Positions 1 to 58,839 of a stretch of DNA of 64,000 bases are shown in pieces. The notes under the pieces are model-generated. The model saw nothing but the letters and a program-made list of their open reading frames with translations. It was not told the DNA's origin and ran no database searches. The stretch lies in the NCBI GenBank assembly GCA_024137785.1, contig JAHRHZ010000099.1, positions 11,925,872-11,989,871 of the forward strand, written 5' to 3'. A program made the translations under genes and the position numbers. The stretch is from Ginglymostoma cirratum (lineage: Eukaryota). Position 1 is the first letter of the stretch. Each line of letters begins with the position of its first letter.

Positions 1-1755
1 TCCACAGGCAGGAAGGGAATGGGTGACCACCACTTGGAGCAGGAAGGCTAAGCAGGCAGTGCAGTAATGTCCGAGATAACAAGCATGGGGCTGGATGAAC
101 ACAGCAGGTCAAGCAGCATCATAGGAGCAGGAAAACTTGACGTTTCGGGCCTAAACCCTTCAGTACCTTTTATCTCTGGCGCAGTAATGTCCTGTGGCTA
201 TTCCCCTGCAAAACAGATATACCGTTTTGGATACTGTTGAGGGGAATAGCCTCTCAGGGGATAACAGCAGCAGCCAAATTCATGGCATAATGGTTGGCTC
301 TGCTGCAGAGGGAGAGAGAAATATGCATAGAAATGCTATAGTTATAGGGTATTCAATCATAAGGGGAACAGATAGGGGCTTCTGTGCCCACAAACAAGGA
401 TCCAGGATGGTGTGTTGCCTGTCTGGTGCTGGGGTCCTGGATGTCTCGGAGCAGTTGCAAATACTTCTAGAGGGAGAGGGTGAACAGCCAGTGGTCATGG
501 TACACGTTGGTACTAACGACATGTGTTAAAAAAGGGATGAAGTCCCAAAAGCAGAATATAGAAAACTAGGAAGAAAGTTGAAATGTAGGACTTCAAAGGT
601 AGTTATCTCAGGATTACTACTGGTGCCATGAGCTAGTCAGAGTAGAAATAGTGGGATATATAGGGTGAATACCTAGCTGAACCAGATGGTGTGCGGGGAG
701 GGTTTCAGAATCGTGGGACATTAGGACCGGTTCTGGGGAAGGTGGGGCCTGTACAAACTGAATGTGTTACACCTGGGCAGGGCCAGGACTGATGTCCTTG
801 GGGGAGGTGGGGTGGTGGTACTTGGTAGAGTGTCTGGGGAGGGTTTAAACTAGTGTGGCAGGGGGAATGGGAACCAGAGGAGTAGGGCAGTACATGCTGA
901 CATTGAGGGAGAGGTAAAAACCAAGGCAGACATGATGAAGGACAAGAAAAGGCAGGGAAACGCTGCTGAAAAGAACAGGGGAGATGGTCTGAAATGCATG
1001 TGTTTCAATGCGAGAAGTATTATAGGCAAGGTGGATGAACTTGGAGCATTGGTTAGGACTTGGAACTATGACATCATTGCAATTACAGAGACTAGGCTGA
1101 AAGACGAACAGGATTGGCACTAAATGTCCCAGATTTACATGTTTCGGGTGTGATAGAAAGGGAAGTTAAAGGGCTGGGTGAGTTGCATTACTGATAAAGG
1201 AGTATCTCACATCTGTCATGAAGGAGGATACATCAGAGGACTCATGCAGCGAGGCAATATGGGTAGAATTCAGAAATAGGAAAGATGAAATCACAATGTT
1301 AGGGATATACAACGGGCCTTCCAACAGCCAGTGGGAGATAGAGGACAGACTATGTAGACAGATTTTGGAAAGATGTAAAAACAGCAGGGTTATTGCGGTG
1401 GATGATTTTAACTTGCCCTGTATTAACTGGGACTTACTTTGTGCTTAGGACTTGAATGGGGCAGAATTTGTACAGACCATTCAGGAGGGTTTCTTGACAC
1501 AGCATGTAAATAGTCCAACCAGGGAAGGGGTTATACTAGACTGGGTTTTGGGAAATGAACCCAACCAGGTGAGTGAAGCATCAGTGGGGGAGCATTCAGG
1601 GGTAGTGACCGTGATGCTGAGTTTTAAGATAGTCATGAATAGAAAGGGAATACAGGGACTCAGATCCTGTAACTGAAGACAGTTTGAGTGTGGAAGGGCA
1701 AAATGTGTCAGGGTAGAAACGTCTGTTCCTGTGCTGTATTGTTCTATGTTCTTTG
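1..1755 (+). mobile_element. decayed CR1-type LINE: ORF1 esterase (SGNH-like), ORF2 APE endonuclease, and 3' tail, with the RT region deleted
   Basis: IVIGYSIIRGTDRGFC...VVMVHVGTND (ORF1 esterase); LKCMCFNARSI...DIIAITET, EAIWVE, DFNLPCINW and PTREGVILDWVLGNEP (APE). Many stops and frameshifts. Jumps to the tail ...ctgttcctgtgctgtattgttctatgttct at ~1720-1752. Confidence 0.88.
73..180 (-). mobile_element. short Penelope-derived insertion with degenerate hammerhead core, nested in the CR1
   Basis: 12-bp duplication GCAGTAATGTCC at 61-72 and 181-192. Minus strand reads CTGAAGGGTTTAGGCCCGAAACGTCA. Confidence 0.75.
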
Positions 1756-1881
1756 TCTGAGGTACAAATTAACGTTGCCATTAAAACAGAATTTGATTTC
1801 CTCCACAGTTACATGTGGATAGAAATTAAAGGATAATTCTTATCAAGAAACAGCAGCTAAAGAAAAGTCAATCTTTCTTAA

Positions 1882-2042
1882 GAGATAACAAGGTGTGGAG
1901 CTGGATGAACACAACAGGACAAGCAGCATCATAGGAGCAGGAAAACTTGACGTTTCGGGCCTAGACCAAAACATCAAGCTTTCCTGCTCCTATGATGCTG
2001 CTTGGCCTGCTGTGTTCATTCAGCCCCACACCTTGTTATCTC
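1882..2042. mobile_element. 161-bp palindromic Penelope-derived insertion (same family as 73-180)
   Basis: GAGATAACAAGGTGTGG...CCACACCTTGTTATCTC inverted arms; 12-bp TSD AATCTTTCTTAA at 1870-1881 and 2043-2054. Confidence 0.85.
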
Positions 2043-2249
2043 AATCTTTCTTAATATACAGTAGAATATCTGAACAATATATGTCTCCTCCTAACTAAGA
2101 TGGGAGTGGGTCTGTTCAGAAATAATGTGACTGGTTAACTGTCAACCCTCTATCTTGTACATGCTGTAGTATCCAGTATCTGTAGTTCATGTAGGTGATG
2201 GATGATCTATATAGTGTCAATTTTAACTGCATTTTAGCTTATCAGTTTT

Positions 2250-2745
2250 CAGAATACCACTTCAACACATCACCATGTTCCTACTCCAATATTTTTGTTG
2301 CAGGCCAGCTGCAGTGTTCCAGCAAGACTCAGTGCAAGCTCATTTTCCACCTAGGGACCCTGCAGCCTTTAGGATTCCATCATTAAGTTTAATACCTTTA
2401 AAGACTGATTCCATCTTTCCATGTTTTCTACCCATCCCAACACCCAGTCCTGTCATGACATGGATTGCATTCAGCACAGCCCACCCACTCTCTCCAACTC
2501 TTAGTTCTCATTACCACCTTTACAACTTCTCTTCTGTCCTGGCCTGCTATCAATAATTACTGCCCACTTCTCCCTTACACCACCAAACCACCCCCACACC
2601 GTTGCCTGCCTTGCCTTCAGCATAAATATTGCTTATTTTACTAGCTGCTATTCGTTCTCATGAAGAGTTATCGAACTCAAAATATTGTCTCTGCTTACTG
2701 CGAGATCTGCTGCGTTTTGCCAGTAATTTCTGTTTTTGTCTCAGA
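2250..2745 (+). mobile_element. Penelope-like retroelement 3' remnant (GIY-YIG endonuclease C-terminus, pyrimidine-rich UTR, degenerate hammerhead repeat)
   Basis: HFNTSPCSYSNIFVAGQLQCSSKTQCKLIFHLGTLQPLG resembles the PLE endonuclease end (HFN..H...L...GL..C.....R...E..LIF.LGTL.P.G.N). CTCATGA-A-GAGT-tatcga-ACTC-AAAA starts at 2657. Confidence 0.75.
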
Positions 2746-3104
2746 ATAGCATCTATTGTTACTGAATACCTGTCTGCACTGCAATTTGATTTTCAACAGT
2801 TAAAATCACCAGGTCATATAAGGCCATAAGGAAAAGGAGCAGAGGGAGGCCATACAGCCCATTGACCCATGCAGTGAAAGTCTCAGGTAAATGGACAATT
2901 GGTCTAGGAAGGCAACCGTATGAATATCCCATCAGTTATTCTAGAAAGTTTTTGATTGAGCTCAGAACTGAACATTGAAGTGACTTCAATTCTTTTAACA
3001 AATGGCTGCAATCTTAATAGACAATTCTGAAATTGTATGAATGCATGTTATTTCATGCTGAGAAAGTTCCATGAGTGCTGTGAGATCAATCTAAAGAAAA
3101 CAAA

Positions 3105-3310
3105 AGACAGAACTTGTAATTATACAGTACATTTCACAATCTCAGGACACTCTAAAATGTTCTGCATCCAATTCAGTCAGTGTGTAATGAAGAAAACGCA
3201 ACAGCACCACAAGCTCCCACAAGTGGCAAGAGGGCAATACAGAGAATTTTTTTTTAGTGATGTTTGAGACATAAATTTTGGAAAGGATACAGGGTGATCT
3301 CCTCTGCATT
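3105..3310 (-). mobile_element. old SINE/L2-type 3' tail, decayed
   Basis: aacttgtaattatacagtacatttcacaatctcaggacactctaaa resembles the reverse L2-derived tail; similar fragments occur at ~26930-27000 and ~32270-32345. Confidence 0.45.
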
Positions 3311-3589
3311 TTATTTAATTTAGAATCAGAAAATCTTGACTGTGGTGAGGTTTGTGTCGGAGATATCCCTCTACAGGGCCTTGTAGAGCAGCCTAGTGAA
3401 AACTCCAGTCAGTCTTCATTACTTTTCCTTTACAAAGTTCTTAATGGGTTTAGTTACCTATCCATCTCATAAAGGTTGATGGCCTTGCTGGTTCCCAAGC
3501 TTATATTTATCAAAATATCTGCCATCAAGGACAGGGTCAGGAAACTGGCACAGCAGCAGATCTTTTCATTTTCCATGCTTGACTATGAC

Positions 3590-3895
3590 AGGAACGTAGG
3601 AATTAAGAGCAGGAGTAAGGAATTCAGCCCTTCGAACCATGATCATGTCTGATCTTATCCTGGTCTCAATTCCACTTCCCTGCCTGCTCCCCAAAACTCT
3701 TTATCCTGCTTTTCATCAGAAACATATCTGCTTCCTTTTTGAATCTGTTGATTGAATCTGCCATCAATGCATTCCAGGCAGCGAGTTCCAAAGATTCACA
3801 ACCCTCACAAGAAATAGTTTCTCCTTATCTGGATTTCGAATCTGACTCCTTTCACTCTATATCAATGTCCTCTTGTTTGAGACTGGCCCACAAGG
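3590..3895 (-). mobile_element. CR1 3' end fragment
   Basis: Reverse of the CR1 tail (gagcaggagta...attcagccc...catgatcatg.ctgatct) plus ...gagttccaaagattcacaaccctc (RVVNLWNSLP on the minus strand). Confidence 0.7.
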
Positions 3896-4997: not shown

Positions 4998-5203
4998 ATT
5001 GTAGAGGTGCCAGCATTGGACTGGGGTGGGCAAGGTCAGAAGTCACACAACGCAAGGTTATAATCCAACAGATTTATTTGAATCGCAAGCTTTCCGAGTA
5101 CTGCTCCTTCATCAGGTGAAGTACTGACGAAGGAACAGTGCTCCGAAAGCTTGCGATTTCAAATAAACCTGTTGGACTATAACCTGGAGTCATGTGACTT
5201 TTG
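4998..5203. mobile_element. inverted (back-to-back) Penelope-derived repeat with two hammerhead cores
   Basis: Arms ~5037-5115 and ~5124-5203 are inverted. Minus CTGATGA-A-GGAGCAGTACTCG-GAAAGCTT; plus CTGACGA-A-GGAACAGTGCTCC-GAAAGCTT. ATTTCATCAT is duplicated at 4988-4997 and 5204-5213. Confidence 0.8.
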
Positions 5204-5214
5204 ATTTCATCATG

Positions 5215-7040: not shown

Positions 7041-7224
7041 TGAAATGTAATAAATTTTTGCTCAGCATTATGAAGTTATTTTGGCTGAAGGTCGTTGCAA
7101 ATGGTTCAGCCTTTCTTTTGCACTCACTGCCAAGCTCTTTCATCACTGAGGATCAGAATATTCAAGCAGTCTCCGCCTCCTGTTAGTTGTCCAAATGCCC
7201 TTCCAAAAATGGTGCCAGCTGGTA

Positions 7225-7649: not shown

Positions 7650-8440
7650 ACTACTTCCCAACTTACTCCTCAAAGCTTTTCCACCATCCAGAGGGGACAA
7701 GTCAGGAATGTTTGTCAGTTTGTCACCACTTGCTCAGATGAGTGTGGCATCAGCAACACTCAAAAAGCTCAACACCATCCAGGTCAAAGCAGGCACTAAA
7801 TCAATTCCCTTCTACCACCTCAACATTCACCACTGATACACAGAGGCGACACTGCAGATCACCTAAAAACACAATGCAAGAACACACCAAGGCTGCTTCA
7901 ACAATAATAAAAACCAAAAGAACTGCGGATGCTGTAAATCAGGAACAAAAGCAAAGTTGCTGGAAAAGCTCAGCAGGTCTGGCAGTATTTGTGGAGGAGA
8001 AAACAGAGTTAACGTTCGGGTCCGGTGACTGCTTCTGAGGAAGGGTCACCGGACCCGAAACTTTAACTCTGTTTTCTCCTCCACAGATGCTGCCAGACCT
8101 GCTGAGCTTTTCCCACAACTTTGTTTTTGCTTCAACAGTATTTCCCAGGCCCATTACTTTTACCACCTGGGAAGAATGAATATGACATATAGGATCACCA
8201 TCACCTGCAAACTGCCCTCATGTTACACCATCCTGATTTGGAACTATGTCATCATTCCTTCACTTCATTCCCTCCAAAATCCTGGAACTGCCTCCCTAGC
8301 AATAATGTATGCATTTACAACCCATAGACTGTGACAGTTCAATTATGCAGCTCATGTCCACCTTTTCAAGAACAACAAAAAGTCAGCAATACTAATGCTC
8401 TTGTCAATGATGCCCATATCCCATGAATCAATTAATAAAT
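7650..8440 (+). mobile_element. non-LTR retrotransposon 3' end, interrupted by the 7904-8127 hairpin insertion
   Basis: LTPQSFSTI..GQVR-like coding remnant, ...aaaatcctggaactgcctccct..., tail gatgcccatatcccatgaat. Confidence 0.65.
7904..8127. mobile_element. palindromic Penelope-derived insertion with hammerhead core
   Basis: ~85-bp inverted arms; CTGAGGA-A-GGGTC-accg-GACCC-GAAA-CTTT-AACTCTG at 8035-8071; TGCTTCAACA duplicated at 7894-7903 and 8128-8137. Confidence 0.85.
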
Positions 8441-10805: not shown

Positions 10806-10945
10806 ATAGTTATAAATATTGAAGAAGGGTCCCGATCCAAAACGTCAACTTCCCTGCTCCTCTGATGCTGCCTGGCCTGCTGTGCTCCTCCAGTTCCACA
10901 CTGTGTTATCTCTGACTCCAGCATCGGCAGTTCTTACTATCTCTG
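10806..10945 (+). mobile_element. single-arm Penelope-derived insertion with degenerate hammerhead
   Basis: TTGAAGA-A-GGGTCCCGATCC-AAAA-CGTC; 16-bp TSD AATGAAACTGTTGTAA at 10790-10805 and 10946-10961. Confidence 0.8.
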
Positions 10946-12489: not shown

Positions 12490-12695
12490 ACTTCCACAAA
12501 GTGCAATGGAAGCCAGGATGTTGAACGCATTTTAGGAGGAGACAGACTTTTAATTCTTAATGGCTTAAAGGGTTATGGAGAGGGGGCAGGATAGTGGTGA
12601 GAAGGCCCAGATGAGATCAGCCATGATCATATTAAATGATGCATCAGGCTTGAGGGGCTGAATTGTCTACTCCAACTTCTAATTCTTATGTTCTT
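12490..12695 (+). mobile_element. CR1 3' end fragment
   Basis: ...aagggttatggagag...gatcagccatgatcatattaaatg...gaggggctgaattgtctactcc...ttcttatgttct. Confidence 0.8.
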
Positions 12696-12729
12696 GCCAT
12701 GACCAAGTGCTATTTTTATTTTGAAGGAC

Positions 12730-13025: not shown

Positions 13026-15489
13026 TCCTCTGACAATCTTTCTCATTCTTCTCATACTTTCTCTTCCTGCTCTGTGCAACCTCTACGTATTTCCAAATTA
13101 TGTTGCATTCTGAAGGAAATGGCAAGTATTGCACCCATTTGTAGGAACAACTGATTTGTACAGAAAGTTCAAAGTCAGCAATATGTTCCTCAACATCAAC
13201 TGCCCCATTCTCTATGGATTGTTATCACATCAACAGCTATAGAAAACACCACTCATAGTATCAGTCAAAGCAACAGCCTTACAAATATCAAACAGCAACC
13301 AACTTATAGTCAGGTGATGACTTTTGTGCTGGCGCAAAGGGTCCTTCCTGCTGCAGGACATGTGCTCAGCAGTATCAAGTTAAGAGAGGTCATTAGCTTG
13401 GAAATTCAGCTATAAAGTGGCACTGCTGGAGTACAGTTGGCTTTTCTGCAAATTGATGTTATAACCTGCCTGCTCTGCATATTTCTGTTTATGGGTTAAT
13501 GTCCTCATTGATGTCTTAACTCATCCCAAAAGTGTTTGTGCATGTTGCAAACACTAGTTGGGTCTCCACGTGTCATCATTTCAAAAGAATGGACACTATT
13601 GATCCTAATTTTTAAAACTTATCTTTCACATTTCAAGTAGAATGTAGACTTCCTTTTAAATGCCTCATTCATATTTCATAGGGTGGTCAAAAGACAGCAT
13701 GCCCAGAAGAAAGACTCCATGGAAAACATCTTCAGTGATTTACATTTGGCTAGAAGCTGTTTTGCAATATTCTTCATTGTTTTATTCTTTGCATTCTATG
13801 TTCTCTTCCCGACAAAACACCCACTCAGTCTTAGTTTGAATGTAGTCAAGTGCTCAGGCTTAACTCTTTACTGGTACTATGCAAGTCACAATGCAATAGC
13901 TAAACATCCCTATACTAAACTAGTAGCTAACAGAGCTAGTAGATTTGGGTTGATTTTTATAATTGGATTAAGTAAATTAGCTCTCCCTTAAAAATAAATG
14001 CTCAAACCAGTGCATAAATTTAAATAATCCAAAGTATATTGTCTGATCACCTAATCAGTGAAATCAAGTAAAGCAAAACAAAAGACAAACTTTAATACAT
14101 GCCACTGCACTATTCCAAAATAGAAAGCTGAGATAACAATGTTAGAAGATTGTTGCTCAATTGAATAATCTCAACTATCCAACAGGTAGATCTTTCATTG
14201 TTCTTGCCCTTTTAAATTTGGGAAGTAATCTTCTAATTAAGGCTAGCATTATGTACAGGTATTGGCAGCTATCTTTAAATTTTACTAGCTTCTTCCACAT
14301 TGCGATAATTATTTAATGTAATGATATTTTGACCCAATTCTTGAACAATACACAGGAATTACCTTCCCTTTAAACTTTTTGATAAATTTTCTCCCTTTAA
14401 TGTTGACTGTATGCCTTTACAGGGGTTCGGATTTGAAGGGCTGAATGGGCTACTCCTGCTCTATTCCTTTTGTTACATTCTTACGTAAGTGCAAAATAAG
14501 AATTCTCTTTTGTTTTCTGTCTCCCTTTCTGTCATAGACTCCCTGTCTTTGTGTCTCCTGCAAAATAATCTATTATTCATATGGAATTATTTATGGCTAT
14601 ATCAAAGATTATTAATGGAAAGATAATTATAAAATGTAGATCTAGAATTTTCTATAGATTTTGCTGTCTCTGGAGCATTTTGCTGGCTCTTTCCAAGCTT
14701 CCAACTAGGTAGTTGCCCAAGCAGGATCAATATCTTCTTTCTTTAACTCCCTAATGATACCTGTGGATTGAAAAAAGCAAAGAGCAAATTCCTTGGCATG
14801 AGTTCATTTCATCGTAAATGTATATTTAGCATTTGTTGGGGGTATAATCTTTCAATGGTCTGATTGTCTACAAACGTCGTTGATTGATATCTGAAATGTT
14901 GTAAACTGGTAGAGAGTCTTGAATGTGTGCTGTCAAAGCAAAGGAATAAAGCAACAAACATGATCAAATTATATATCAGACTACAATGGATTGATCTGCT
15001 CCCAACAACTTCTGACTGGTTGGGTTAGGTTTAAATTACCATTATGTGGTAGGGAGATGATTATATGTGGCATCAAATAACTATCAATAGATCTGTTCAA
15101 CTATTCATAAACACTCCAAGGATTGAAATATCTATCCAGTTATGTATCAGTTGGCACAAAACAAGGGCCACCACAGAAGGTAACAAATGGACATTGTTTT
15201 GAGATCAGACACTGTATTTTGGGTTTTGGTAAAGTTGCACTCAGTTTTAATTTCCCTTTCATTTTATATTTAAAATAGACAAATGGGTTATGAGACACAG
15301 TTTTTATGGAATTTTCATTTCAGTTAAATTGATCTGCACATTTGAGTGAAGGTACAACAAAATGTGCATTTACATTATGGATCTAAAATTATTCAGCAGT
15401 TTGATTCAAACCAATTCCTTCAGCAAACTTATTATCAAAGTACAATGCTCAGGTAAATTCATTCAGATATCTCAAGTTAATATTGAAAT

Positions 15490-17479: not shown

Positions 17480-17810
17480 ATAAAGATAAACTATTTCCAG
17501 TGAATCAGGTTTCAAAAATTATGGGCGATCGCCTGAGAATTAGGGCCAGACTGTTCAGGAGAGATGTTAGGAAACACTTCTACACACAAAGAATGGTAGA
17601 TGTTTGGAACTGTCTTCCAGAAATGGAAGTGGATGGAGGATCAGTTGTTAATTTTATATCTGATTTAGATAATATTTGTTAAGAAAAGGTATGAAGGGAC
17701 ATTGGTCAAAGACAGATGTATGGAGTTGGGCCACAGATCAGCCATGATCTCAGTGAATGGTGGAACAAGCTTGATTCGCTGAGTGGTCTACTCTTGTTCT
17801 TGTGTTTCTA
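17480..17810 (+). mobile_element. CR1 3' end fragment
   Basis: KLFPV...GDRLRIRARLFRRDVRKHFYTQRMVDVWNCLP followed by the gatcagccatgatctc tail. Confidence 0.85.
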
Positions 17811-20189
17811 ACTTAGGCTTTGAGACTGTGAGCTGCAGGCTGGTGGAAACGGTAGATAAAGTTTGTAAATGGGGAGCAAGGATATCTGCAAGCAAGGGTA
17901 CGGTAAAGCATGTCTGAGAAGGGGCTAGAAGGGAGGTTTTAATAATGATCAGGAGCACTGGTTTCAAGGAAGGATCACTAAATGACCACTTATGCCAAGG
18001 ATTGAGTGGGAACAGTGGGCAGGTGCATGCACACACAGATGGGTTGGGTGGGGACCTGGGGAGGTATGAAGCTTATAGGAAGGGTTATCAGGAAGGGGAT
18101 CTGGACTTACATGGGCTCATCAACACATTGTGATGAAGGCTGCAAGCCACTGGCCAAAGAGCACTTCAGCCTTCCACCATGCTGGGCATTGAAAATGTGC
18201 AATGGAGGAAGAAAATGGCTATGTCTGCACTCATAGTGGGCAAGGTAAGTAACTCAACCTGTGAGAAAGGAGGCTGCAGCACCCACCAGTGTTCGGGCTT
18301 TTCAAGAAAAACAACATTGCACATGGACCTATGCACTGTGCATGACAGTGATCTCTGGGTCCCTATTTCCTGGCCACCCGAACATATTTGCCCTTTCTGT
18401 ATGATGTAAGTCTCTGTCACAGATACTACTGGGACAATGAATTGACAGTTATACTTTTGGACTTAAAGGCTGTGAAATGATGGCTATAACGTATGAGGAG
18501 GGCCAAAGATATCAGCCTGACGCAATATCATGGATAAGAAAGGCCCTGTTATCCAAATCTCAAGTATCCAGAATTCTCATGCAATTGACATCTGAGATTC
18601 AAATGGGGAATTCCAGATGTTTGAGATGCTGACAGCAGGAACTTTACTGTATTAGCAAGAAGCAACTATCACAATAGGGAACACCGGTGTTTAATGAGTG
18701 ATCCTGGCTGCTTGTTTTTAAAATGTGCGTTCATCTTGTGACAGCGAAAAGTCGAGTTCTCCCAGGCACCATCTCCAGATCCCCTTCCTGATAGCCCTTC
18801 CCATATGCTTCACACCTCCCCAGGTCCCCTATCTGCATATGCATGCATCTGCCTACTGTTCCCACATGCCACTCAGAAATTCAGGTAACGGACACTGCTG
18901 CATTCCTCCTGTGTGCTGGAGACCAGAATGATAACTGAATGTAGATTATTCTAGATGATGCAGCAAGCTCTCAGCACAGATTTCCATCATGCTGTCATCA
19001 AGCCCCACATATAAAGACTAACAGACAGACATAATGCTTAAAACGATGGCCTTTCTATAAAAGTACTAAATTAATTACAACCCATGGTCACCCATCTTAC
19101 CAAAGTGCCTTCAATTTGTTTTCTATCTCCTCTACCTTCCACTACATCTTGGTGAACTCCTTGGTTCTGCAGCTGTGTTGGAGGGTCCCTGCTCAGCAGT
19201 GGAGCCCATTGATCCTGCAGCTTTGGCCAGCCAACCCAGGGGCACTTGTGCCTTGATGAGTCAGACATTCTGAGTGGCTAAGTTGACCCCCTTGTTGTGA
19301 AGTTTCAATGGTCAGAGGGCAGCAGGCAGGGGAGAGGTGGAGGCCACCCCTGGAGTATCCTGAGAGGAGTCTTCTGAAGGGTCTGCGTGTGATCACTGCT
19401 CCAGCTGCCTGCCTCCAGGCACCATCCTGTCTCGATGTGAGGAGGTGATCTGGAGCATGCATTAGGTTTCCCACAACTCAGTCATCATTTGTTCAGCCCC
19501 AAGGACCAGTGGCTGGGGCAACAGAGTGCAGATATGTGACTTTCTCTCCAGCAGACCCTGAGGGTGCTGAGTCTAGCTCTCCAGGCACTGCCAACCTCTC
19601 CATAGACCCAGACAGACAGTCACATAACTCACTACATTGCTACAGCTTCTGGGCAATGAGGACCACTATCTCACACATCCCTGTCTGCTGCTCCTGATCC
19701 CCACTGTGTACGTAGATGAAGTATCTGATTGCTGACTTCACAGGGTCCTTTCCTGTCTGGGGCTGAGCAGGTGCCTGGTCTCTTGCTGCCCTCCAAGCTC
19801 CAGCAGCCTGGAGGGCTTCTTCCTTAGCCAGCTGCACGGCTGTCACTGTGAGGTGCTCACCAGACTGTGGTGTCACACTCTCAATGCACAATATTCCCAT
19901 TGAGGTGTCAATATCTGGTCAGGTGGCAGCCTTGCTGATGCACCCTCTAAGGCCTCTGTACTCTCATCCAAAGAGATCTAGAGCTTCTGGAGGAGCTGGG
20001 CATTTCTCTGGAGAGGTAGTGGAGATGTTGGCTGTGTCTGAAAGACAAAAGAGAGAAGAGTCACCAGAGCTTACAGGTGATGTGCAATGAATGGCACTGA
20101 CAGCAAGATTAATGTGAGAGTAGCTGTGGAGTAAAGAGTGGTAATTATTCCAGAGTCGGGTGGATGGGGGGGAGCGAGTGTGGGTTGGT

Positions 20190-20775: not shown

Positions 20776-20905
20776 CTGGGTGGAGGCACATGAGATGCCA
20801 GTCTTTTGGCAGATTTCCATTGATTGATTAGTTGTTCTGATAAAAGTACGTGGTAAGATGGAATCAGATGAAACAGATGCCATGGGTGGAGTAGGTAGTT
20901 GATGA
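20776..20905 (+). repeat. 130-bp direct repeat, copy 1
   Basis: Matches 21919-22048 with 6 mismatches. Confidence 0.95.
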
Positions 20906-21918: not shown

Positions 21919-22048
21919 CTGGGTGGAGGCACATGAGATGTCAGTCTTTTGGCAGATTTCCATTGATTGATTAGTTGCTCTGATAAAAGCATATGGTAAG
22001 ATGGAATCAGATGAAACAGATGCCATGGGTGGAGTAGGTAGTTAATGA
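21919..22048 (+). repeat. 130-bp direct repeat, copy 2
   Basis: Offset 1143 bp from copy 1. Confidence 0.95.
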
Positions 22049-22933: not shown

Positions 22934-23098
22934 GGTAGATAAACAAGAGGCTGGAAGAACACAAGTCAGGCAGTATTTGGAGGATGGACAGTAATACCCA
23001 AAACGTTCACTTCTCCTTTCCTCCAGATGCTGCCTGTCTTGCTGTGTCCTTCCAGCCTCCTGTTTATCTACCTTCCAACCCAGCACCTGCAGTCTCTA
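22934..23098. mobile_element. palindromic Penelope-derived insertion (another subfamily)
   Basis: GGTAGATAAACAAGAGGCTGGAAG...CTTCCAGCCTCCTGTTTATCTACC inverted arms; central taatacccAAAACGTT is a decayed GAAACGTT. Confidence 0.7.
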
Positions 23099-23470
23099 AC
23101 CTTGTCAGTTTGTTAAACAGTCCTGCTGATGAATCCAGAAGGGGGTCTGAGGTATCAGCCTTTTGCTGTGAACTCAGGAGAAGGAAGAGAGAGAGGTGAC
23201 GTAAAAATGACCAGTCACCAAGCTGGGAACATGACATTATCTGAAGAAAAATGTTATCTTTTTCCGGGGTTGCTCAAAGTATAAAGCTGACTAGGATAAT
23301 TATGCTATAGTTTTACTTGGTTTCTTGATTTTGAGTAGGATATGGCAGATAAAGTGAAAAATGTAAATTCACTTGCTGCCTATGAAATGAAACAGCTCAG
23401 TGATTTGGATCTGGCCTCTCACTATTAAAAGATCAGTGAACGGTGCATGTGAAGAGGTGTGAAAGACACA

Positions 23471-24039
23471 GGACAGGATTTTTTTCAGATCTACAGGGTT
23501 TCCTGGATTAAGGACTGGCATGATTAGCAATCATGCATGACTGCTAATCATGCCAGTCCCACATCCAGATGATGGCTCATTCAGTGTTAAGTGGCTGGAG
23601 ATTGGGCTTCCAGGCCTCACTCTGACCAAAATCCTGCCTTATGGAGCTGTCAATAATCTGATCGACTGGCAGCTCCACAATCCAAGCTGAGCCTGTGGCA
23701 GCAATGACCAGCGCCGAGGCGACAAAGAGCCCCTAGGTCACAATTCCCAGAGTCAAAAGCCGGGTAGATGTGGGTGGTTTCTCAGCACGGAGAATAGGTG
23801 AGGCCCAGTGGAGATAGGGAAACATGGGGTGAGGATCTTAATGGAGTGACTGGGCAGGAACAACATTTAAGTTACACTTAAGGGCATCCACAAGGGCAAG
23901 GGGAAAAAGGCTTCATCTGCCTTCAGTAAAATTGCAGCCAGGTTGGGGGTGTATAAGAGGGCAATTTCAAGGCCAACTGAGAAATTTTTACGGGACCCTG
24001 ACTGCAAACTCACTGAATGGAAAGCATAAAATTCTGCCC
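23471..24039. mobile_element. probable non-autonomous DNA transposon (Harbinger-like MITE)
   Basis: Imperfect terminal inverted repeats GGACAGGATTTT (23471) and AAAATTCTGCCC (24028-24039); GC-richer interior. Confidence 0.4.
23512..23559. repeat. 48-bp palindrome
   Basis: GGACTGGCATGATTAGCAATCATG|CATGACTGCTAATCATGCCAGTCC, 1 mismatched pair, no spacer. Confidence 0.95.
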
Positions 24040-31197: not shown

Positions 31198-31440
31198 TAT
31201 AAAAGCAAAATACGGCAGACGCTGGAGATCTGAAATAAAAACAGAAATTGCTGGAGAAACTTAGCAGATCTGGCAGCCTCTCTGGTAGGAGACAGAAGCT
31301 ACTATTTCCAGCCCGGAACGTTCAGCTCGGGAGGGGAATCATAACCGACCGGAAACGTTAACTTCTTTTACCTGTCTGTACAGATACTGTCTGACGGGTT
31401 ATGAGCTTTTTTTCAGCAGTTACCTGCGTGATATTTTTGT
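31198..31440. mobile_element. old palindromic Penelope-derived insertion
   Basis: aaagcaaaatacggcagacgctggagatctgaaataaaaacagaaattgctggagaaac... is the same arm as 7904-8127; the opposite arm has GAAACGTTAACT at ~31352. Confidence 0.7.
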
Positions 31441-37239: not shown

Positions 37240-37340
37240 TGATTCCGAGGAAGGATCATTCGACTCCTAACACCAACTCTGCCTTTCTCTCTACAGATGC
37301 TACCAACTTGCCGCGTTTCTCCAGCACTTTAACGTTTTTT
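37240..37340 (+). mobile_element. old single-arm Penelope-derived repeat
   Basis: tccgaggaaggatcattcgact...aactctgcctttctctctacagatgct...tttctccagcac. Confidence 0.6.
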
Positions 37341-40300
37341 TGTATACTCTCCTGCCCAGAGTTCAGTTGTTTATCTTCATGGGACACATGAATACGTGAT
37401 AATAGATAACACTTCCTAACATATTGTTCGTTAAGGTCGAGATATTATTTCTTTTTGAGTTGAATAGAGGGATCATGAAATCCATAACACAATGTGCAAT
37501 ATATCCGATCCGAAATGTATTTTTAAAGGTTTTTTCTAAATTCAGCAACGTGCTACAGAAAGATGCCTGGCTGTGGCCATCCGAGCAATACAAGAAGTTA
37601 AATTTTAAAGTGTAAAACACTGAACAACACAAAGCCAGAAAGGGGATACTTTCCGGTTCCAAAAGTCAAATGATTGCGTTGTAGTGCGTGTCGTTGTCGG
37701 TTGTTGCTTCGAGTGCACAGAATGCAGGGCACCAGGAACTGAAGCCAAATGCTGTTTCCAGGAGAAAGGGAAATGTGCCGTCTAATAATTCTAAGCATGA
37801 TGTTTCGTTGTTAATAGGCTTAGTGATTATTGGTTGGTTACAACTGGAAACACCGTTTGTGGGGCTGTAGCTTAGAATAAGCAGACAAGTAATTTCATTT
37901 TTCTAGATCTACCCTATGCATTCCCCAATTTCTCCATGCAATGTGTGTGTTGGGAGGAGGGGGGCGGCGGGCTGCCTGTGAAGATCTGTTTCTCTCCCAG
38001 GTGAAGTCTATAACAAATCAAATGAGATGATCTTCCTATTTGGTGCTCAGAGTAAATTGGCCTCGCCAGCCAGTCATTACTCTGCGCAGTTCCAATCAGC
38101 GGCATTCGCGTTCAGTTCTGTGCTTTCTTTGTTCCCCTTCAGTTCCATGATGTAGGTGTATTTCCATCTGAGAAGGGTTTATTTCCTTCTATAATTTTCC
38201 TAGATGAATATGCATCCTGCTTGGATACTTTGCGGAAGATACACTGAAAATGTGTCACCTCGCTCCCCCACTCTCCCCCCCCCACCCCACCCCAAAACCC
38301 TCCCAAGCCTCCCTGTTCACAATGTGGCCTGCTTTCGCAGTGTGGAGCTCAGTATGGTCACCTGCATAGTTCACACATGAAAAGTGACCTGTTTGCGTAG
38401 ACTCTTCCGAGACGCTGCGCAGCATGTGGGATTAGCATGTGGCATGTGCATAACAAGCACAATTGTATGTTCACTGATTTGAAAGTGGAAACCGTAAAAC
38501 GCCGAAAGATAAAAGCGACACAAATTATTGATGGAAGTATGAAACTCGAATTTTTCCTCCTGGCTTTTCTGCAGTCAAGTTTTCTAAGCCATCTTAGAGA
38601 GGTACTGGTCTGTCCTTTTACAGTCAAGCATTGAAACAAACGTATAGAGATATTATTATCAAAACAAAAATGAAATGCTCACGCCTACTAAATAATGAAT
38701 TTCAAAGCTTCGCTTTAACAATGTCCTCTCACAATAACATGTAGGATTTATTCATCTGTTGTGTTCTTTACATATCTGAGTTATTTATGAACAAAGAACA
38801 AAGACAATATGCTCTCCTGAGCTTTGATTTTCCTATAAGTCAGTGAAATTATTATGCTAGTTAATAAGTTTTTGATTAAATGGCTCTACTTTAATTTCTT
38901 CTGTCTTTTAGAAATGCCTTATCATGTTCCAAACTGCGGAGATTTGTGTCCAGATCCCTCCCACATATTACCCCAAATAAAAGTCGCTTTATCTAGTGGA
39001 ACAGTGTGAAACGTGCGTTCAATCGCACACTGGCATTCTCTTATCTTTACAGCAAGTGTCTGTCCCAAGTTTCCCTACCGGACGCGTGAAAAGAGGGGGC
39101 AGCAGTTAAAGAGAGAAATCCTTTTAACAAAAATATGCCTTTTTTTGTTAACTGTTTATCCAACTTTTGAAATAACATGAACCCAAATAATGATCATGCG
39201 GAATTAGCCACCTTTATCTTCCCAGAAACAACTTATCCGAACATGAACTGAATATTTGCTAAGACTGAAAAAAAATCGTGTCCCGACGACGTTTTGGAAG
39301 GCAAACAAATGGCCAAAAATACAGCACTTGATCTTAAACAAAATACAACAATAGTTTTTGCCCCAATTCTTCCCATGAACTTGCTCTATCTAACGTTAGA
39401 TGCAGCTGTCTGAAAACCATGAGGCAAGCACGCCTTATAGCTTGGGACGAAAAAAAGTACAGCCCATGCTGACTCCATTGCAAACTAGCAGTACATTGCA
39501 TTTAAGCAGCAACATGCTGAAATATGGATTTTTCCCCCGACAGGAATGAAATGACCTAAATCTTTTAACTCCTAAGCAGTTAATCAATTTTTGATTGTTA
39601 TGAAAATTCATAATCTTCAAAACTGTCTCCATGAAATTAAGAGCGCTGTCAGCTTTGACACATTTGGCCCGACTGAAATGTTTCGAGCAACTTTCACATA
39701 GTCTTGGTGTCAGTGCATGTACATGCATAATAAATGTTGCAAGAGGGTTCTCTATGGCTGGATCACAGATGAATAAACTATGGCTGAAGAGTTATGTTTT
39801 ACACACAGGTATAATCTCTACTTGCCAGTAACTATGCATTAAGAAGGTCTGTAATTATTCTGGGAAAAATAGTGGAATTTTCAAAATCCAACAATATAAA
39901 CAGACTGAAACAGCTGGGCACTTACATCATTCGTGCTATTAAGGAACAAAGTAGACGATTAGTAACGGGCTGCATTTTTTTGGAGATTGCCACGAATGTG
40001 ATCATTTTCATGAGCTATGACATTCTCTTCATTTTCTGTGTTATAGATCTTGATTGCGAGTGTGGTGTAATTAAATCCATTATATTGCGAGAGGAAGAGA
40101 ACTCCATCCGGACCGCAGCAACAGCGGTTCATGTTAAGGCTGCTTCCACTCTTTTTATTAAGCATTCAAACGCTGAAAATAGTTGTCTTTCTTTTTCAAA
40201 AAGGCTAGAAATTAATGTTTAGCAGACAAAATACTGCTGGAGTGTAAACAACAATAAATGATTCTTGCAGGGAAACAGTAATTTTAAACGTTAACATTTC

Positions 40301-51867: not shown

Positions 51868-51892
51868 AGAGAGAGAGAGAGAGAGAGAGAGA
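51868..51892 (+). repeat. (GA)n microsatellite upstream of tbx3
   Basis: About 12 dinucleotide units. Confidence 0.9.
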
Positions 51893-53600
51893 CCCGGGAA
51901 TCAAATGGAACGTCGTCAGATCGCAAGCTCCAGCGGCGGAGACTGGTGGTGCTCAGAGCGACTTTTTCTCGTCAGGATATACTCACAGATCAGAGAGGCG
52001 ATATTACGGTTAAAAAAAACCGAAAAGTGATACGAGACGCTAGTTACAGCTCGACGTCAGCAGCCTGGCGCCAAGCGCCCTTAAACATGTGCGTCAAAAA
52101 TGCAATGTTACAAGAGCTAATCACTTTAGATGTTCCGCTCCTATCTCCGTGCATTTAGCCGATGTGATTGCTTCTCAGTTCAACTTTTTTTTTATCCCCC
52201 AGCGCTCTCAGAAAGGGAGAGAGAAGGGAGAAGGCACCGTCCTTTCCACTTGAAACTGCAGCAGCCCTTTAGGCGCCATGTCCTCATAATTAAATCACCT
52301 CGTTAAAATGAAGCTTTTCTTTACAAAAAATGTTGTTGAAAGCATTGCCAAGAAACAAATAAAATGAAGACACTGGACATCTCAAGGCTTTGTCCTTTTC
52401 TTCTGCCACCCCCTCCCCCCACCAACAACCCAAATTAAAATGCAGAGATGGTTTATCCTCTGCAGGCCGGGGAAGGGGTGGGGTGTAGAGTGGAGGACGA
52501 GACGGGGGAAAGTCTCGATACACTGACCACCCCCACCCCCGCGCGAATCAACAATGAATGTACATGAATGCTCATCGCTGGCATTGGAAGGCGGCAGATC
52601 AGTGTGAAGGGAGGAGTGATGTGGCGGAGATTGCATATAACGGCGAGAATGAGACAGATTGGGCTGAGACTCAGCTTGCCTCTGGACACACGCATGATCT
52701 TTCCTCCGTCTGGTTTCCTGGGGGTCGATGGTGGCTGAAGCCACCTGAGGCGGGCCCTGCGCCTTTCCATTGGCTGGTGTTCCCACCCCCACCCCGCCAA
52801 CCACATTAGTAACTCCCACCCCCTCCCTCTCTAATGATGTTGACATATTCACACGGCTGAAGCAGTGATCCTCGCTGTACGTTACCGTTTCCGACACCTT
52901 CTTTTTATAACTCATCTATCCCCGGCTTTACTTGTCAAAACCACGCCTATGGAGCCACACAATTGGTCCGAAAGCGTCAAATAGCCAATCAACAGTGCTC
53001 AGCTATTCGCAATACGCACACATACACACACACATACAGAAAGATCGGACTTGACTGTTTGGGGAGATGCGTCTCTGCTGTGCCACCTCCAGCCAGTCTT
53101 ACTTTCAGTTTATCTGAAAAGCGAAGAACACAATAATATTAATAATGATGCGCTTGTAAGCGGCAGTGCGACAGAGATCCGGGGAGTGGATGAATTTACC
53201 GATGAGAGAGCCAGTTATTCCGGGGACAAGCATGGCTTATCATCCGTTCTTACCTCACCGGGCACCGGACTTTGCGATGAGTGCTGTGCTGGGACAGCAG
53301 CCTCCTTTCTTCCCGGCTCTGGCCCTGCCTCCGACCGGCTCGGCCGCTCTCAGTCTCTCCGCCGGACTAGGCAAGCCCGTTATGGATCAGCTTGTAGGCG
53401 CAGGTGAGGCCGGAATCGCTCTGTCTGCAATGGGCCACCAGCCCTCGCATCTGAGGCCTCTTAAGACTCTGGAGCCCGAGGAAGAAGTGGAAGACGATCC
53501 GAAAGTTATACTCGAAGCGAAAGATTTGTGGGATCAGTTTCACAAGTGTGGCACTGAAATGGTTATCACCAAATCTGGAAGGTACAGTGAATTTTTCCCT
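51880..53600. promoter_or_regulatory. CpG-rich promoter / 5' UTR region of tbx3
   Basis: High CpG and GC content directly upstream of and over exon 1. CCAAT/ATTGG boxes at 52658, 52769, 52962 and 52985; CACCC/GC boxes at 52470-52540 and 52785-52825. The TSS cannot be fixed from sequence alone. Confidence 0.7.
53190..53581 (+). CDS. tbx3: tbx3 coding exon 1 (N-terminus and start of T-box, ...[23 protein letters not shown])
   Basis: ATG at 53190; donor AG|GTACAG with GT at 53582; phase 2. Confidence 0.94.
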
Positions 53601-54646
53601 GCAAGATGCAAATGCCTGCCTCACTGATTAGAAAACATTCGAGCCTTTTTGATATCCAACCTTGATTAGCTTTGACAACACGATAAATATATATTTTAGC
53701 AGGTTGTAGGATCAAATAGGCAAAATAGATTTATTTGAAAATAGCGGCCAGATATATTCGCGTGTGATCTGTCAATGGTTCTTTTTTTAAATAACATGCC
53801 CATTTTGCTGAAATAGTTTTTCTCCATAAATACAGTCACTTGTTCAGTGAAATAGCACACCGTCTTCAAACCTTTTATTCTCTTCCTTGCTTTCTAAGAT
53901 GAGACATCGCCAGACTAACAAGGGCACAAGCTCGATCAAATATTTGGCTTTAATAAGTACTAATGATATTAGTCGAAATAGCTTATTCTTTATGAGAGGG
54001 GAGGTCACATGGGATCGGTAGAGGGCCGGTTGATGAAACTGACTTAGTTGGAAGTTTTATTCATCCATTCATTTGATCTGAGTAACGACAGGAGAACACT
54101 CAGTCGCCTTACATATAAGATGTACCGACTGCAGAGTTTAAGGTTCCAAACCACTACATAAGATTGAAGGGTCGACTGTGCGTGTGTACCGGGGGTGGGG
54201 GCCTTGCAAATATTCGCGGGCTGAGGGGTAACGCACAGTAGATTATTTTCACGACACCTGCGATGGTAGTATTTTAATTCACGCAGATTTTTTTTTTCAA
54301 TTGCACCCTATTGTTGTTTATAAATCGTAAACGTTGAGTTAGCCGCGGCCTTATCCAGGTAATCATTGCATATAATGCCTTCGGCAAGGGTTGAATCATC
54401 CTTGTCAGAATTTTGAAACGTTGAAGTATAAGCTAAAATGTCTCCAGTTAGATGTTACTGTGTCACTAGTTTAGGCCTGCATTATTTAAAAAAAGTAGAG
54501 CTTTTAAAAAAAAATGCAAACATTAACTACTTCTAACAAGGAACATTGTTGCTGCTTTACAACACTTCAATAGCCTACCAGAGACTGAAATGTTTCATGC
54601 ACCAAATGCCTGGGAATCAGAGGCTCCAGTCTCAGAAATAGTATAG

Positions 54647-55033
<387 letters not shown>

Positions 55034-55719
55034 TAATATACAATTCTTTCAATGATTTAAAAACAATATATAGGAAGCACGGCGATATATGTTTACTTTA
55101 GCCGCGGTCGGCTAAAATAATATTTTCTCCATCAGAAGTTAAAAGATATAGCACCAAATCCTGTTGCCATGAGGATTTTTCCGCTTTGTTTTGTATTTTC
55201 TGTGGATCATGACTTGTATTCTGCTAACCTGAGGTATTGTGTAGATCGGCCATTTTAAGTATCTGGAATTGCAAGTATTTGATCGTTTGGATCATATTTT
55301 TACAATTTTCTACGGCATTGAAAATGATAAAGCCTTAATCACATGTCAACTTTCTCTCTCAATTTTCAGTTTGTAAATTTCGCAGTAATGTCCAATGGCT
55401 TGTAGTGGAAAATATTTGCAAACTAACACACTTTGGCAAATCTGCAATGTATATGTATCATGCTCGCTGGAGAGAAAAAAATGCAGCCACTGTGATAACA
55501 ATGACCATTGCAGTTGCTCCGTTAGTTAAAGCATTTTAATATGGCATTCAAAAGCAGTATACTAAATAAATGAAAATTATTTATACTTATTTACTAGTCA
55601 CTTGCTACTTGTGACTGCATTTTCAGTTAAAATCAGGCATGTCAGTATTTGAATTATCTTGCCGGTTTGATTAATACATATATTTCTGGGGAAGAATTAC
55701 AGACATATTTCTAGATATA

Positions 55720-55747
55720 ATATATATATAGATAGATAGATAGATAG
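55720..55747 (+). repeat. compound (TA)n(GATA)n microsatellite in intron 2
   Basis: atatatatatagatagatagatagatag. Confidence 0.85.
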
Positions 55748-56062
55748 GCATTATATATTTCCAAATCAGGTGGCATTAACTTTCTAAGTCTTCAAGCAGT
55801 AGGCGAGGCCATAGTGCAAATCTTATCACACTGTCAGCTGTTCACACTCCTTCTGAACTCTTGTCCTTTCATGGGGGATCTTCTCCACTGGATATTAGTT
55901 TATATTATTGCTGGTCAACTATTAATATGTAGCGTGCGATTAAGAAGTAAAATTATACAATACTGACATTAGCAGGAACCTGGCTAAGTTAGGAAGAGTC
56001 ATATCATCTGCGCAACTGCACTCGCGTTGTTGAGTTGTAATTCCTTGATTTATTCTTTTTAG

Positions 56063-56209
56063 ACTATTTTAAACTCCATGCACAAGTATCAGCCCAGATT
56101 TCACATTGTTCGTGCGAACGACATTTTGAAACTTCCTTACAGTACTTTCAGAACATATGTGTTCCCTGAAACAGAGTTCATTGCGGTCACCGCATATCAA
56201 AATGATAAG
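56063..56209 (+). CDS. tbx3: tbx3 coding exon 3 (T-box, [16 protein letters not shown]...TAYQNDK)
   Basis: Acceptor ttctttttag|; donor AAG|GTGAGT; 147 nt; phase 0/0. Confidence 0.97.
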
Positions 56210-57682
56210 GTGAGTAAGAAAAAAGTAACTTCTTTATTTGCAGCAAAGCAGTGTGTCTTACACGGATTTTGATCTATCTACAGATGTACTGTAGTTATTG
56301 TCATTAGAGTCAAAACTTGAAGCCTTGGTGAAACTTCCTTTATTGTTTGTAGGCCACTTCTTTAGTTCATTCTGATCAAGCCTATTTTAATTGGAAATTT
56401 CACTTAATCTGCAAGAAAGTTTGTTGAATATTCGGCACATCCTGGAGCTCATATAGATTTTATGGTTTGTGTTGGACTGTTGGTTTTGGCATGAGCTCGC
56501 TTATGCGGCACCTCTCCTGTACTCATATTTGTATAGGTTGTGGGTTTATGCCAGATGTGTTCTGCCAGGTAATAGGATTTAATCGATCCTGAACCTGTCA
56601 TTAAATTAGACATTTTTTAAAAAATCAAACAAGGCTTTTCGCACCGTTTACAGAAAATACAAGCTGTGGACGAGACTTTAAGTCACAATGTGTTACATGA
56701 GAGTATTTGGCTTAGTACAGGTATCAAAAGCCTCTGACGATGATCAGTTAATTATTGGTGATGGTTTCACGCAAATAGTTTTAAAGAACTCTTTTTGTGG
56801 GCATTTAACGCCTCATCAGACTTCTAGCTAGTCGGCTAACGTTATTGATAACAGCTAAGTCCACTGTCTGCAGTAAACTGATAATTTTTGGTTGGCGCAC
56901 AGTTGATCATGACGAGTCTCAGACAGAATAAAAACTGATTACTAAAAGGGTGTTAACATGATAAGTGAGATGGCGTTAACATTCTGGGTGTCTTGATGTT
57001 TCTTTGGTCTATTTCTATATCTTCCGTTACAATTGCACTGTTATCTTCAGTTCATTATTTAAATGACAATGGTTTCAGTCTCATTAAATTCTCGATTGAA
57101 GAGAAGACGAAAGCGGGCAATAAAGTTACTGTTGACTCACTGTCAACAGAGGGCAAGTTACAATGTTGACGCCAGACCAGTTTCACCCCCCACCCATGAA
57201 GTGCCTGCCTGTCTAACAGTCGCTCACACGCGGGTTAGCATGACACGGAGGTGCTTTATGCGGGGGCAAATCACTGGTTTTGAACTTTACATTCTCACAT
57301 GTAATAAAAGAAATACATTTGAGTCAAATACAGTAAAACCAAACCGTATATTTTTGCAATGTGTCTGTGTGCAATGGTGGCTTGAATTTTAATACGATAG
57401 AATTATAGCGAAAGAAATATAAGAAGTGCGGATCACAGTGAAGAATAATGGACCGTACTGAAGTATATAGTGCGGTGGCTGCTTTAACATAGTTTGACAT
57501 TTTATGCTGTAAATAACAATCAGAGATAATAGTATATTAGAAATCTAAATTCAGTGGTCACTGATTTCCGTCAGTGACTTGCGGCAGCGCAGTGTTCACC
57601 CCGCGAACTTCCTGTAAACATTATACTTGATGTTGTGTCGCAGAGCGATGAATATGATCAGACTTGCTATCTTCCCATCTAG

Positions 57683-57759
57683 ATAACCCAGTTAAAGATC
57701 GACAACAATCCATTCGCTAAAGGCTTTCGCGACACAGGAAATGGGAGAAGAGAGAAGAG
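57683..57759 (+). CDS. tbx3: tbx3 coding exon 4 (end of T-box, ITQLKIDNNPFAKGFRDTGNGRREK)
   Basis: Too short for the ORF track and translated by hand. Acceptor cttcccatctag|; donor AG|GTAAGT; 77 nt. Confidence 0.97.
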
Positions 57760-58168
57760 GTAAGTTTCAGTTCAACTTGAGTCTATTTGTCAATCGGGGC
57801 CTGGTTACGCTCATGATCCTAATCACCTTCTTGATGTGGACGCTGTCAAACTCTTGGTAACACGCAAAAAAGAGAAAATGAGGACTGCTTGTTGTTTGCT
57901 TGTTGCACTTTGCCACCGTGCAGTATCTTTCGTTTTATGTTTGATGTTCTGCCTGTTATTTTTAGAAAATGGGAAAAGGCTATCAGATTGTGAGCATGCC
58001 CACAGAGTAGTGCGGCTCAAATCATCACCTGATCCAACTTGAATAGTCTGGCTTCGCTTTGCTAGGGTGAAAGAAAACGGAAAATGACAAGGGCAGTTAT
58101 TTGATCGTCTTTTTAAAATAAAAACGCAAGTCATTGTCCTTCCCTTTTCTCCTTGTTGTTAAAAACAG

Positions 58169-58332
58169 AAAACAGTTAGCGATTCAATCGCTACGAGTCT
58201 ACGAGGAACAGCAGAAGGGGTCGAAAGAGAATGGGACATCGGACGATTCATCAAGCGAACAGCCGGCTTTCAAATGCTTCGGTCAATCCACGTCCCCCGC
58301 TGTCTCCACACCAGGAACCGCGAATCTAAAAG
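58169..58332 (+). CDS. tbx3: tbx3 coding exon 5 ([13 protein letters not shown]...[12 protein letters not shown]...TANLK)
   Basis: Acceptor aaacag| ends at 58168; donor AAG|GTTATT is weak; 164 nt keeps the frame into exon 6 and completes the RREKRK NLS-like stretch. Confidence 0.9.
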
Positions 58333-58744
58333 GTTATTATTTTGTTACCTACACAAGGGGCTTGTTTGTTCTTTTATATATAAGGCGTGACTAGGTTTGT
58401 GCCCATTAATTGGGTGTCTGTCTTGAAGATCCTTATCACCTCCCTCTGAGCCGAATAACTCAGGACAAGATAACACACTTTAGTTTCTACAGTCTCCCCA
58501 GTAGAACCGGGTGACCTAAAACCATGGCCACTTGTTTGATGCGTGCTGGATATTGTGTCGAATTTAATAGGTTTTAAATATCTTTAGGATTGGAAATTTC
58601 TCTGATCAGTGAAACAGTTTCTTACAGATCGGCGTCTTCCTTTTGTGTTTTTAAGGTACATGAATCAAAAAGCAGCCCCTCCCCTACCCCAAGAAAAATT
58701 AAGCGTTTTGATTTCTTGCAGCTAAATGATCATTGTCACTGTTA

Positions 58745-58839
58745 CAAAGATAGAAATTGCTGAAAGTACTCAGTAGGTCTGGCAGCATCTGTGGGGAGAA
58801 ATCAGAGTTAATGTTTCAGTTGAGTGACCCTTCCTCAGA
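58745..58839 (-). mobile_element. Penelope-derived hammerhead-like insertion in tbx3 intron 5 (antisense)
   Basis: 13-bp TSD ATTGTCACTGTTA at 58732-58744 and 58840-58852; minus strand CTGAGGA-A-GGGTCACTCAACT-GAAA-CATT-AACTCTG. Confidence 0.85.

Follow-up and report, generated by a model that had tools for sequence, protein, structure and literature searches.

Probable truncated and inverted ends of Penelope-like elements, with mostly decayed minimal hammerhead ribozymes, in a 64-kb stretch of Ginglymostoma cirratum DNA

A stretch of 64,000 nt from Ginglymostoma cirratum (contig JAHRHZ010000099.1; hereafter the window, mean G+C 41%) contains ten small dispersed insertions, which are probably 5′-truncated and inverted pseudo-long terminal repeat (pLTR) copies derived from two or more endonuclease-positive families of Penelope-like elements (PLEs) in a cartilaginous fish. 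A preliminary description of this DNA had listed ten dispersed elements, and self-comparison and profile searches built from the element arms confirmed that all of them are homologous repeats. Fifteen arms were recovered, 13 of family A, probably of the Neptune clade, and two of family B; a sixteenth arm of 14 nt is found in the element at 73. The repeated unit corresponds to the 3′-terminal part of a coding PLE: the end of the open reading frame (ORF), the 3′ untranslated region (UTR), a minimal hammerhead ribozyme (min-HHR), about 80–95 nt, and an optional tail of 33–42 nt. The ten insertions cover 3.0% of the window. No further copies were detected in the window by the arm profile searches (next-best matches, E 4.3 and 0.71), and the interval from 37345 to 58745 yielded no PLE copy.

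The link to a coding element comes from the insertion at 2260–2740 on the plus strand. Because an ORF end, a hammerhead core and a pLTR end all lie inside one target-site duplication (TSD), this insertion can be taken as a 5′-truncated coding PLE copy, composed of the ORF C-terminus, the 3′ UTR, a decayed hammerhead and the pLTR end. The TSD (11 bp with one mismatch, 2249–2259/2741–2751) brackets the start of the homology and the short 3′ end, and duplications like this arose by chance in 49 of 1500 trials with wide zones and in 3 of 1500 with tight zones. In the preliminary description the elements were sized at 95–240 bp; the size needs correction for this copy, which had been noticed at ~2640 and is really ~480 bp long, its ORF remnant and its TSD having been missed. 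The decayed ORF C-terminus (2258–2408, plus strand) comprises about 50 codons with a 5-codon deletion and one frameshift, and its stop codon is at 2406–2408, about 250 nt upstream of the core at 2657.

The peptide of the ORF remnant is identical at 27 of 41 positions to a whale-shark predicted protein (E 8.7e-7 library-wide), a gene model that is the only library-wide match of any peptide from the window. By eye, the remnant resembles the C-terminal ends of Neptune/Naiad GIY-YIG endonucleases (Fig. S2 of PMC8557442), with an HF...S and an I..L.T..P.G segment as in those ends. A short motif from the rows of that figure, composed after the peptide had been seen, gave one match in the window, at 2339, vs 5 in 300 shuffles. 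Judged from sequence, the remnant is likely a Neptune/Naiad-type GIY-YIG endonuclease end. The clade is judged here from about 50 C-terminal codons, the window being without the reverse transcriptase (RT), the linker and the full endonuclease. Since Naiads have an N-terminal endonuclease and are missing canonical hammerheads, Neptune is favored over Naiad. In canonical PLEs the C-terminal endonuclease is followed by the UTR and the hammerhead, and the order in 2260–2740 is the same. Features of endonuclease-positive PLEs found here are thus a hammerhead downstream of the ORF end, a tail of the 30–40 nt type, an inverted 5′-truncated pLTR in head-to-head orientation, and a short TSD of variable length.

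Other protein-level searches returned little. None of five candidates passed in a word-indexed search with the 2240–2377 peptide, and none of four with the open frame of the arm at 10806. When long relatives of the whale-shark match were sought, one of ten candidates was retained, itself another gene model with the same fragment. Searches of both protein matches against the window by tblastn revealed no second ORF remnant, and a tblastn search against phage gave no match, which is uninformative. In the EukProt models P0001 and P0002, the same ORF-end fragment is fused to unrelated sequence, in one of them with a PF00084 domain; these fragments are probably repeat pieces absorbed into gene predictions.

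Six of the insertions (73, 1882, 4998, 7904, 10806, and 58745) are flanked by exact TSDs of 10–16 bp, as had been described, while a duplication of 10 bp or longer was reached by 8 of 3000 random placements. With the mismatched TSD of 2260–2740 the number is seven of ten, with lengths of 10, 10, 11, 12, 12, 13, and 16 bp. Their A+T content (58/84) shows a weak trend compared with 60% in the window.

Six insertions are arranged head-to-head, five as long palindromes and one, the element at 73, with the 14-nt inverted arm; this palindromic structure had been overlooked in the preliminary description. Among the long palindromes, the family A element at 1882–2042 (both strands; TSD 1870–1881/2043–2054) has two arms that are joined within helix II at a common CC (1966–1967) and both stop at the short 3′ site. 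The family B element at 4998–5203 (both strands; TSD 4988–4997/5204–5213) consists of a minus arm, 4998–5119, with a 38-nt tail and a plus arm, 5124–5203. In the family A element at 7904–8127 (both strands; TSD 7894–7903/8128–8137), the minus arm has a 42-nt tail and the plus arm runs from about 2 nt before the core to the short site. The other two palindromes, also of family A and on both strands, are at 22934–23105, with a 33-nt tail on the plus arm, and at 31198–31430, an old and decayed copy with a 35-nt tail on the minus arm and an approximate right end. The element at 73–180 (family A, minus strand) consists of a long arm, 73–163, and the inverted arm, 165–178, and has an exact 12-bp TSD (61–72/181–192) within a LINE-like remnant. 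Together with one TSD copy it measures 120 nt and its two flanks are in frame with each other, as a clean insertion would leave them.

Four insertions are single-armed. Besides 2260–2740, these are the family A copies at 10806–10945 (plus strand; 33-nt tail; 16-bp TSD 10790–10805/10946–10961; 13 unassigned bases at the 5′ junction), at 37243–37345 (plus strand; earlier placed at 37240; decayed, starting 2 nt before the core), and at 58745–58839 (minus strand; 13-bp TSD 58732–58744/58840–58852). The 5′ end of the last one adjoins its TSD, 1–2 nt before the core, and the copy lies on the antisense strand of a TBX2/3-family gene, with exons on either side.

Tails are thus found on five arms, of 33, 33, 42, and 35 nt in family A and 38 nt in family B. 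The family A tails are mutually similar: five of the six pairwise scores were reached by 2 or fewer of 1000 shuffles and the sixth by 35. In four of the five long inverted copies, the tail is confined to one arm.

The 5′ ends are not scattered along the unit. Read by hand and given relative to C3 of the core, the ends of the longest arms are at about 0, +9, −397, −4 to −8, −2, 0, +17, about −2 (uncertain), −2, and −1. Seven of the ten lie within −8 to +1, and nine within −8 to +17; even under best-case exponential truncation such clustering has P of about 5e-5 or less, the interval having been picked after the data were seen. One subgroup (the plus arm of 7904, 37240, and 58745) starts at about −2. 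None of the 16 arms begins or ends at the cleavage site, and the core-bearing arms run through it. That nine of ten insertions stop within −8 to +17 of the first base of the core and none starts at the cleavage site is the remaining testable lead from this window. The possibility that a splice acceptor directly precedes the core, as it does in Drosophila Penelope, was considered as well and found unsupported, the one long copy having no AG there.

The inversion junction differs in every inverted copy, which fits independent truncation events. Palindromic overlaps of 2–3 nt inside the ribozyme are found at the junctions of 1882 and, probably, 7904. In 7904 the junction loop is on the shorter, untailed arm, so the tailed arm cannot be the product of one cDNA folding back on itself, and priming from both nicks is suggested. 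Fold-back of a single cDNA as the sole mechanism of inversion was therefore rejected for 7904; it is possible for 1882, 4998, and 22934. Self-priming on an antisense template, which PMC3846280 favors for inverted-pLTR junctions, is a rival explanation of the head-to-head copies.

Taken with the literature, the copies suggest the following pathway. The RT/GIY-YIG protein of the element would cut both strands of AT-rich DNA and initiate reverse transcription internally at one of two sites, giving the optional tail, as published for other PLEs (see below). The template would be uncleaved RNA, because the copies run through the cleavage site. Synthesis would usually end at the 5′ edge of the core, through run-off at the end of the RNA or through a stall at helix II, both of which explain the clustering of 5′ ends and are not separable here. 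For the head-to-head copies, both nicked strands may be extended and the two cDNAs joined by 2–3 nt of microhomology in the ribozyme palindromes, with fold-back possible for some of them. The genomic copies would then be fossils, with CpG-type decay at both CpGs of the core and, in the inverted copies, with the core locked in a long hairpin. To go by the literature on PLEs, self-cleavage would be expected of the source element, whose ribozyme would act weakly as a dimer or with help from the protein.

As for the ribozyme, both cores cited in the preliminary description, at 5124 and 8035, were confirmed. The core at 5124–5152 (plus strand) is the sole intact one in the window, its helix I having been lost at the inversion junction. 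The core at 8035–8064 (plus strand) has a perfect 5-bp helix II, and one substitution breaks its helix III palindrome, and that at 2657–2686 (plus strand) is decayed at G5 and G12, with all 5 bp of its helix II paired. The claim that all elements converge on one motif was not confirmed: both core boxes are exact in only 4 of 15 arms and 3 of 10 elements, neither arm of 1882 or 22934 retains CUGANGA, and the CUGANGA box of 73 carries a deletion of 3 nt. The bare motif is not enriched in the window (10 matches vs 6.7 expected; 10 or more in 16 of 100 shuffles). A full descriptor, written after the 2014 min-HHR consensus (PMC4209133), recognized 1 of 15 arms, 5124 plus with 0 bp of helix I, vs 1 match in 60 shuffled windows. 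Only this arm combines all core nucleotides, the G10.1–C11.1 pair, the extra base after A9, and palindromic 15.2/16.2; the other arms are decayed or truncated. An Rfam scan of the window, a check proposed earlier, gave 11 matches at E ≤ 10, none of them to a hammerhead family, and those to mir-3202 and MIR528 are palindromes folding on themselves. In helix I no arm has three consecutive pairs, the best being three of four pairs in 4 of 7 arms scored, and its 5′ strand is mostly removed by truncation. Pairs of helix II were counted in 8 of 13 family A arms (1882 plus, both 22934 arms, and both 31198 arms excluded), since a joint alignment of A and B misregistered helix II; 91% of the cells are paired, and two of the five pairs are doubly changed.

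The best evidence, at the level of sequence, for a real motif is that the core is shared by families otherwise dissimilar. Downstream of the core, families A and B have no similarity (137–290 of 500 shuffles scored as high), and what they have in common is the two core boxes, the additional base, a helix II of five pairs, and a four-base palindrome replacing helix III. Pairs 3 and 4 of helix II differ compensatorily between the two families. The extra base after A9, previously proposed as a tolerated variant, and the ACGU/AGCU palindrome match the published min-HHR consensus (PMC4209133, as above). The expectation that the boxes would be better conserved than their flanks was thus borne out between the families and not within family A, where the downstream block (235/286 letters, 82%) exceeds the GAAA box (40/52, 77%) and positions 15.2–17 (63%). 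This lower conservation of the core boxes may be due to CpG-type decay at both core CpGs, such changes being found in 5 of 10 scored family A arms at C11.1–G12 and in 4 of 10 at 15.2–16.2. Furthermore, transcripts of the palindromes are predicted to bury the core in a hairpin, and a ribozyme-compatible fold would cost 37.4 and 30.5 kcal/mol in two of them, so that inverted copies are unlikely to self-cleave. To judge from these sequences, the ribozyme holds as a trait of the families and not copy by copy.

The best-conserved block of family A is located at about +51 to +81 from C3 (e.g., 8086–8116). A weak stem is predicted in it, with GCUG/CAGC pairing in 10 of 11 arms, and the block is a candidate for a protein-binding or priming signal.

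Several observations weigh against assigning the copies to endonuclease-positive PLEs by the pathway above. No Pfam or Atlas label was obtained for the ORF remnant, and no search returned a full-length PLE protein for it. Because both protein matches are gene models containing the fragment, the terms GIY-YIG and Neptune depend on the by-eye likeness and the post hoc motif. The ORF is reached by one of ten copies, and family B is without a link to any ORF. Three copies (22934, 31198, and 37240) have no TSD, even in a search allowing 2 mismatches in 11. Covariation in the helices, which had been put forward as a check, is suggestive and not significant, the whole structure being equaled by 44 of 500 shuffles. 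The clustering of 5′ ends is not accounted for by simple random truncation, and 31198, which looks like 7904, is too decayed to support dual priming firmly.

In PMC4209133 (2014), minimal hammerheads, widespread as solo copies and also paired on opposite strands 100–700 bp apart, were attributed to truncated PLEs. The consensus is the same here (CUGANGA, one extra base, helix II closed by G–C, GAAA, palindromic 15.2/16.2, UH, and a short helix I), whereas the cores on opposite strands directly abut or overlap instead of being spaced 100–700 bp apart. No cartilaginous fish is found among the rows examined of its Table S1 and Fig. S3. In Poseidon PAc of Anolis, according to Frangieh et al. (2024; PMC11167929), the protein acts at AT-rich sites, where it cuts and extends both DNA strands, and initiates internally at two sites whose spacing equals the tail length; uncleaved RNA is the preferred and dominant substrate, and the ribozyme needs the protein. 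Adineta Penelope is described as having inverted pLTRs, TSDs of 8–10 bp and, at one of the inverted pLTRs, a tail of 31 bp (Arkhipova et al., 2013; PMC3846280), and a 30–40 bp tail with an inverted truncated copy is a PLE feature in PMC8557442. Shared with these systems are 3′ ends about 80–140 nt past the hammerhead, a choice between two 3′ ends, pLTR inversion, TSDs close to 10 bp, and a template that seems to be uncleaved. In contrast, the ORF of PAc starts at helix II, from which no open frame consistent across the present arms was seen, and nine of ten copies here are pLTR-only.

The pile-up of 5′ ends also admits a more specific reading. The ends may mark the true 5′ end of a template RNA of about 100–140 nt, the head-to-head copies, in which a tailed arm faces an untailed one, being in vivo footprints of a PLE protein dimer that primes both nicked strands of the target at the two initiation sites known from in vitro work, and the ribozyme serving as a boundary or joining element and not as a cutter. 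We regard this as a tentative proposal, possible though doubtful; if it were true, shark genomes would hold a very abundant SINE-like class composed of the PLE ribozyme and priming signal alone.

A true non-autonomous family, in which an RNA of ~95–140 nt starting just before the core would be transcribed from solo pLTRs and mobilized in trans by a PLE protein, is rather unlikely as judged from this window. It is the earlier idea minus the retrozyme label and can coexist with the assignment to truncated PLEs. The clustering of the longest-arm ends and the common start of 7904 plus, 37240, and 58745 at about −2 are what such an RNA would leave, but RT stalling, or priming at the 5′ pLTR of full-length transcripts, would produce the same clustering. 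PLE promoters are located in the pLTR (PMC2377424), and non-autonomous PLE derivatives forming pLTRs are known in Chlamys (PMC8557442). Against this, the copy at 2260–2740 is evidence of longer coding templates, the junctions are not common among the copies, and a tRNA-like head was looked for in the elements and not found. The earlier label “non-coding, non-autonomous” is hence unproven: an ORF end is contiguous with one copy and no two junctions agree, while with the tight 5′ ends a short non-autonomous RNA is possible.

Non-LTR retrozymes, whose monomers would arise by double self-cleavage, circularize, and reinsert, are very improbable and largely refuted within the window, and the term “retrozyme-like” is not supported. 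Retrozymes are head-to-tail tandem repeats with mostly canonical hammerheads and are expressed as circular RNAs (PMC7229834 and bioRxiv 10.64898/2026.07.22.740005). The type I hammerhead, a PLE relationship, small size, and long TSDs are common to them and the present copies, and monomeric derivatives, as well as retrozymes in one chondrichthyan, are reported in the latter source. The present copies, however, are solo or head-to-head and without any head-to-tail tandem unit (the longest tandem period in the window is 20 nt, among 15 rows); their cores are minimal and decayed; cores on opposite strands allow no cis dimer; the cleavage site is neither the start nor the end of any arm; and the tail is characteristic of PLEs.

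Miniature inverted-repeat transposable elements (MITEs) or other palindromic derivatives of DNA transposons with ribozyme boxes by chance, an idea to which the five long palindromes, the unenriched bare motif, and the Rfam result could lend themselves, are refuted: the ten copies show neither a TSD of fixed length (10–16 bp) nor terminal inverted repeats on every copy, the arms are unequal, four copies consist of one arm, one extends into the end of an ORF, and the core boxes and palindromic helix III recur in two families whose downstream sequences are unrelated. A Penelope origin, a minimal type I hammerhead with palindromic helix III, and variable TSDs of the target-primed type, all proposed in the preliminary description, are supported.

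As truncated PLE ends, the copies are a new host example of known truncated and inverted PLE pLTRs and represent largely known biology. A literature search on Penelope in sharks and elasmobranchs found no paper devoted to shark PLE hammerheads; tandem retrozymes are described in one chondrichthyan (bioRxiv 10.64898/2026.07.22.740005), Penelope is listed in the whale shark genome, and repeat databases probably already hold these families. The value for annotation is small, PLE pLTR fragments with minimal hammerheads being already known. The mechanistic value may be greater: since ten insertions make up 3.0% of the window, a shark genome may contain junctions in large numbers, useful for questions of PLE integration, namely the origin of the head-to-head pLTRs and of the one-sided tail, the cleavage of the template, and the role of the hammerhead. 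If transcribed, the palindromic copies would form long double-stranded RNA (predicted fold z-scores, −13.7 and −22.6).

The window harbors other features. At its left end, a LINE-like remnant (1–1680, plus strand) has an ORF1-like frame followed by endonuclease-like frames, with weak Pfam matches below cut-off, and is presumably CR1. Exons of the TBX2/3-family T-box gene are located at 53160–60784 (plus strand), and the gene is presumably TBX3. Another short dispersed repeat family is found at 3578–3703, 12566–12707, 14432–14462, and 17735–17793, and resembles LINE or SINE 3′ tails. An inverted repeat pair at 18006–18105 and 18774–18865, ~670 nt apart with a 56-nt core 93% complementary, is possibly a DNA transposon derivative, and a 130-nt direct repeat, 95% identical, at 20776–20905 and 21919–22048, 1143 nt apart, is possibly a long duplication flanking an insertion. 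A 66-nt palindrome at 23503–23568 with a perfect center (88% complementary) is unrelated to the PLE arms, and a degenerate repeat of ~20-nt units is present at 61832–62002.

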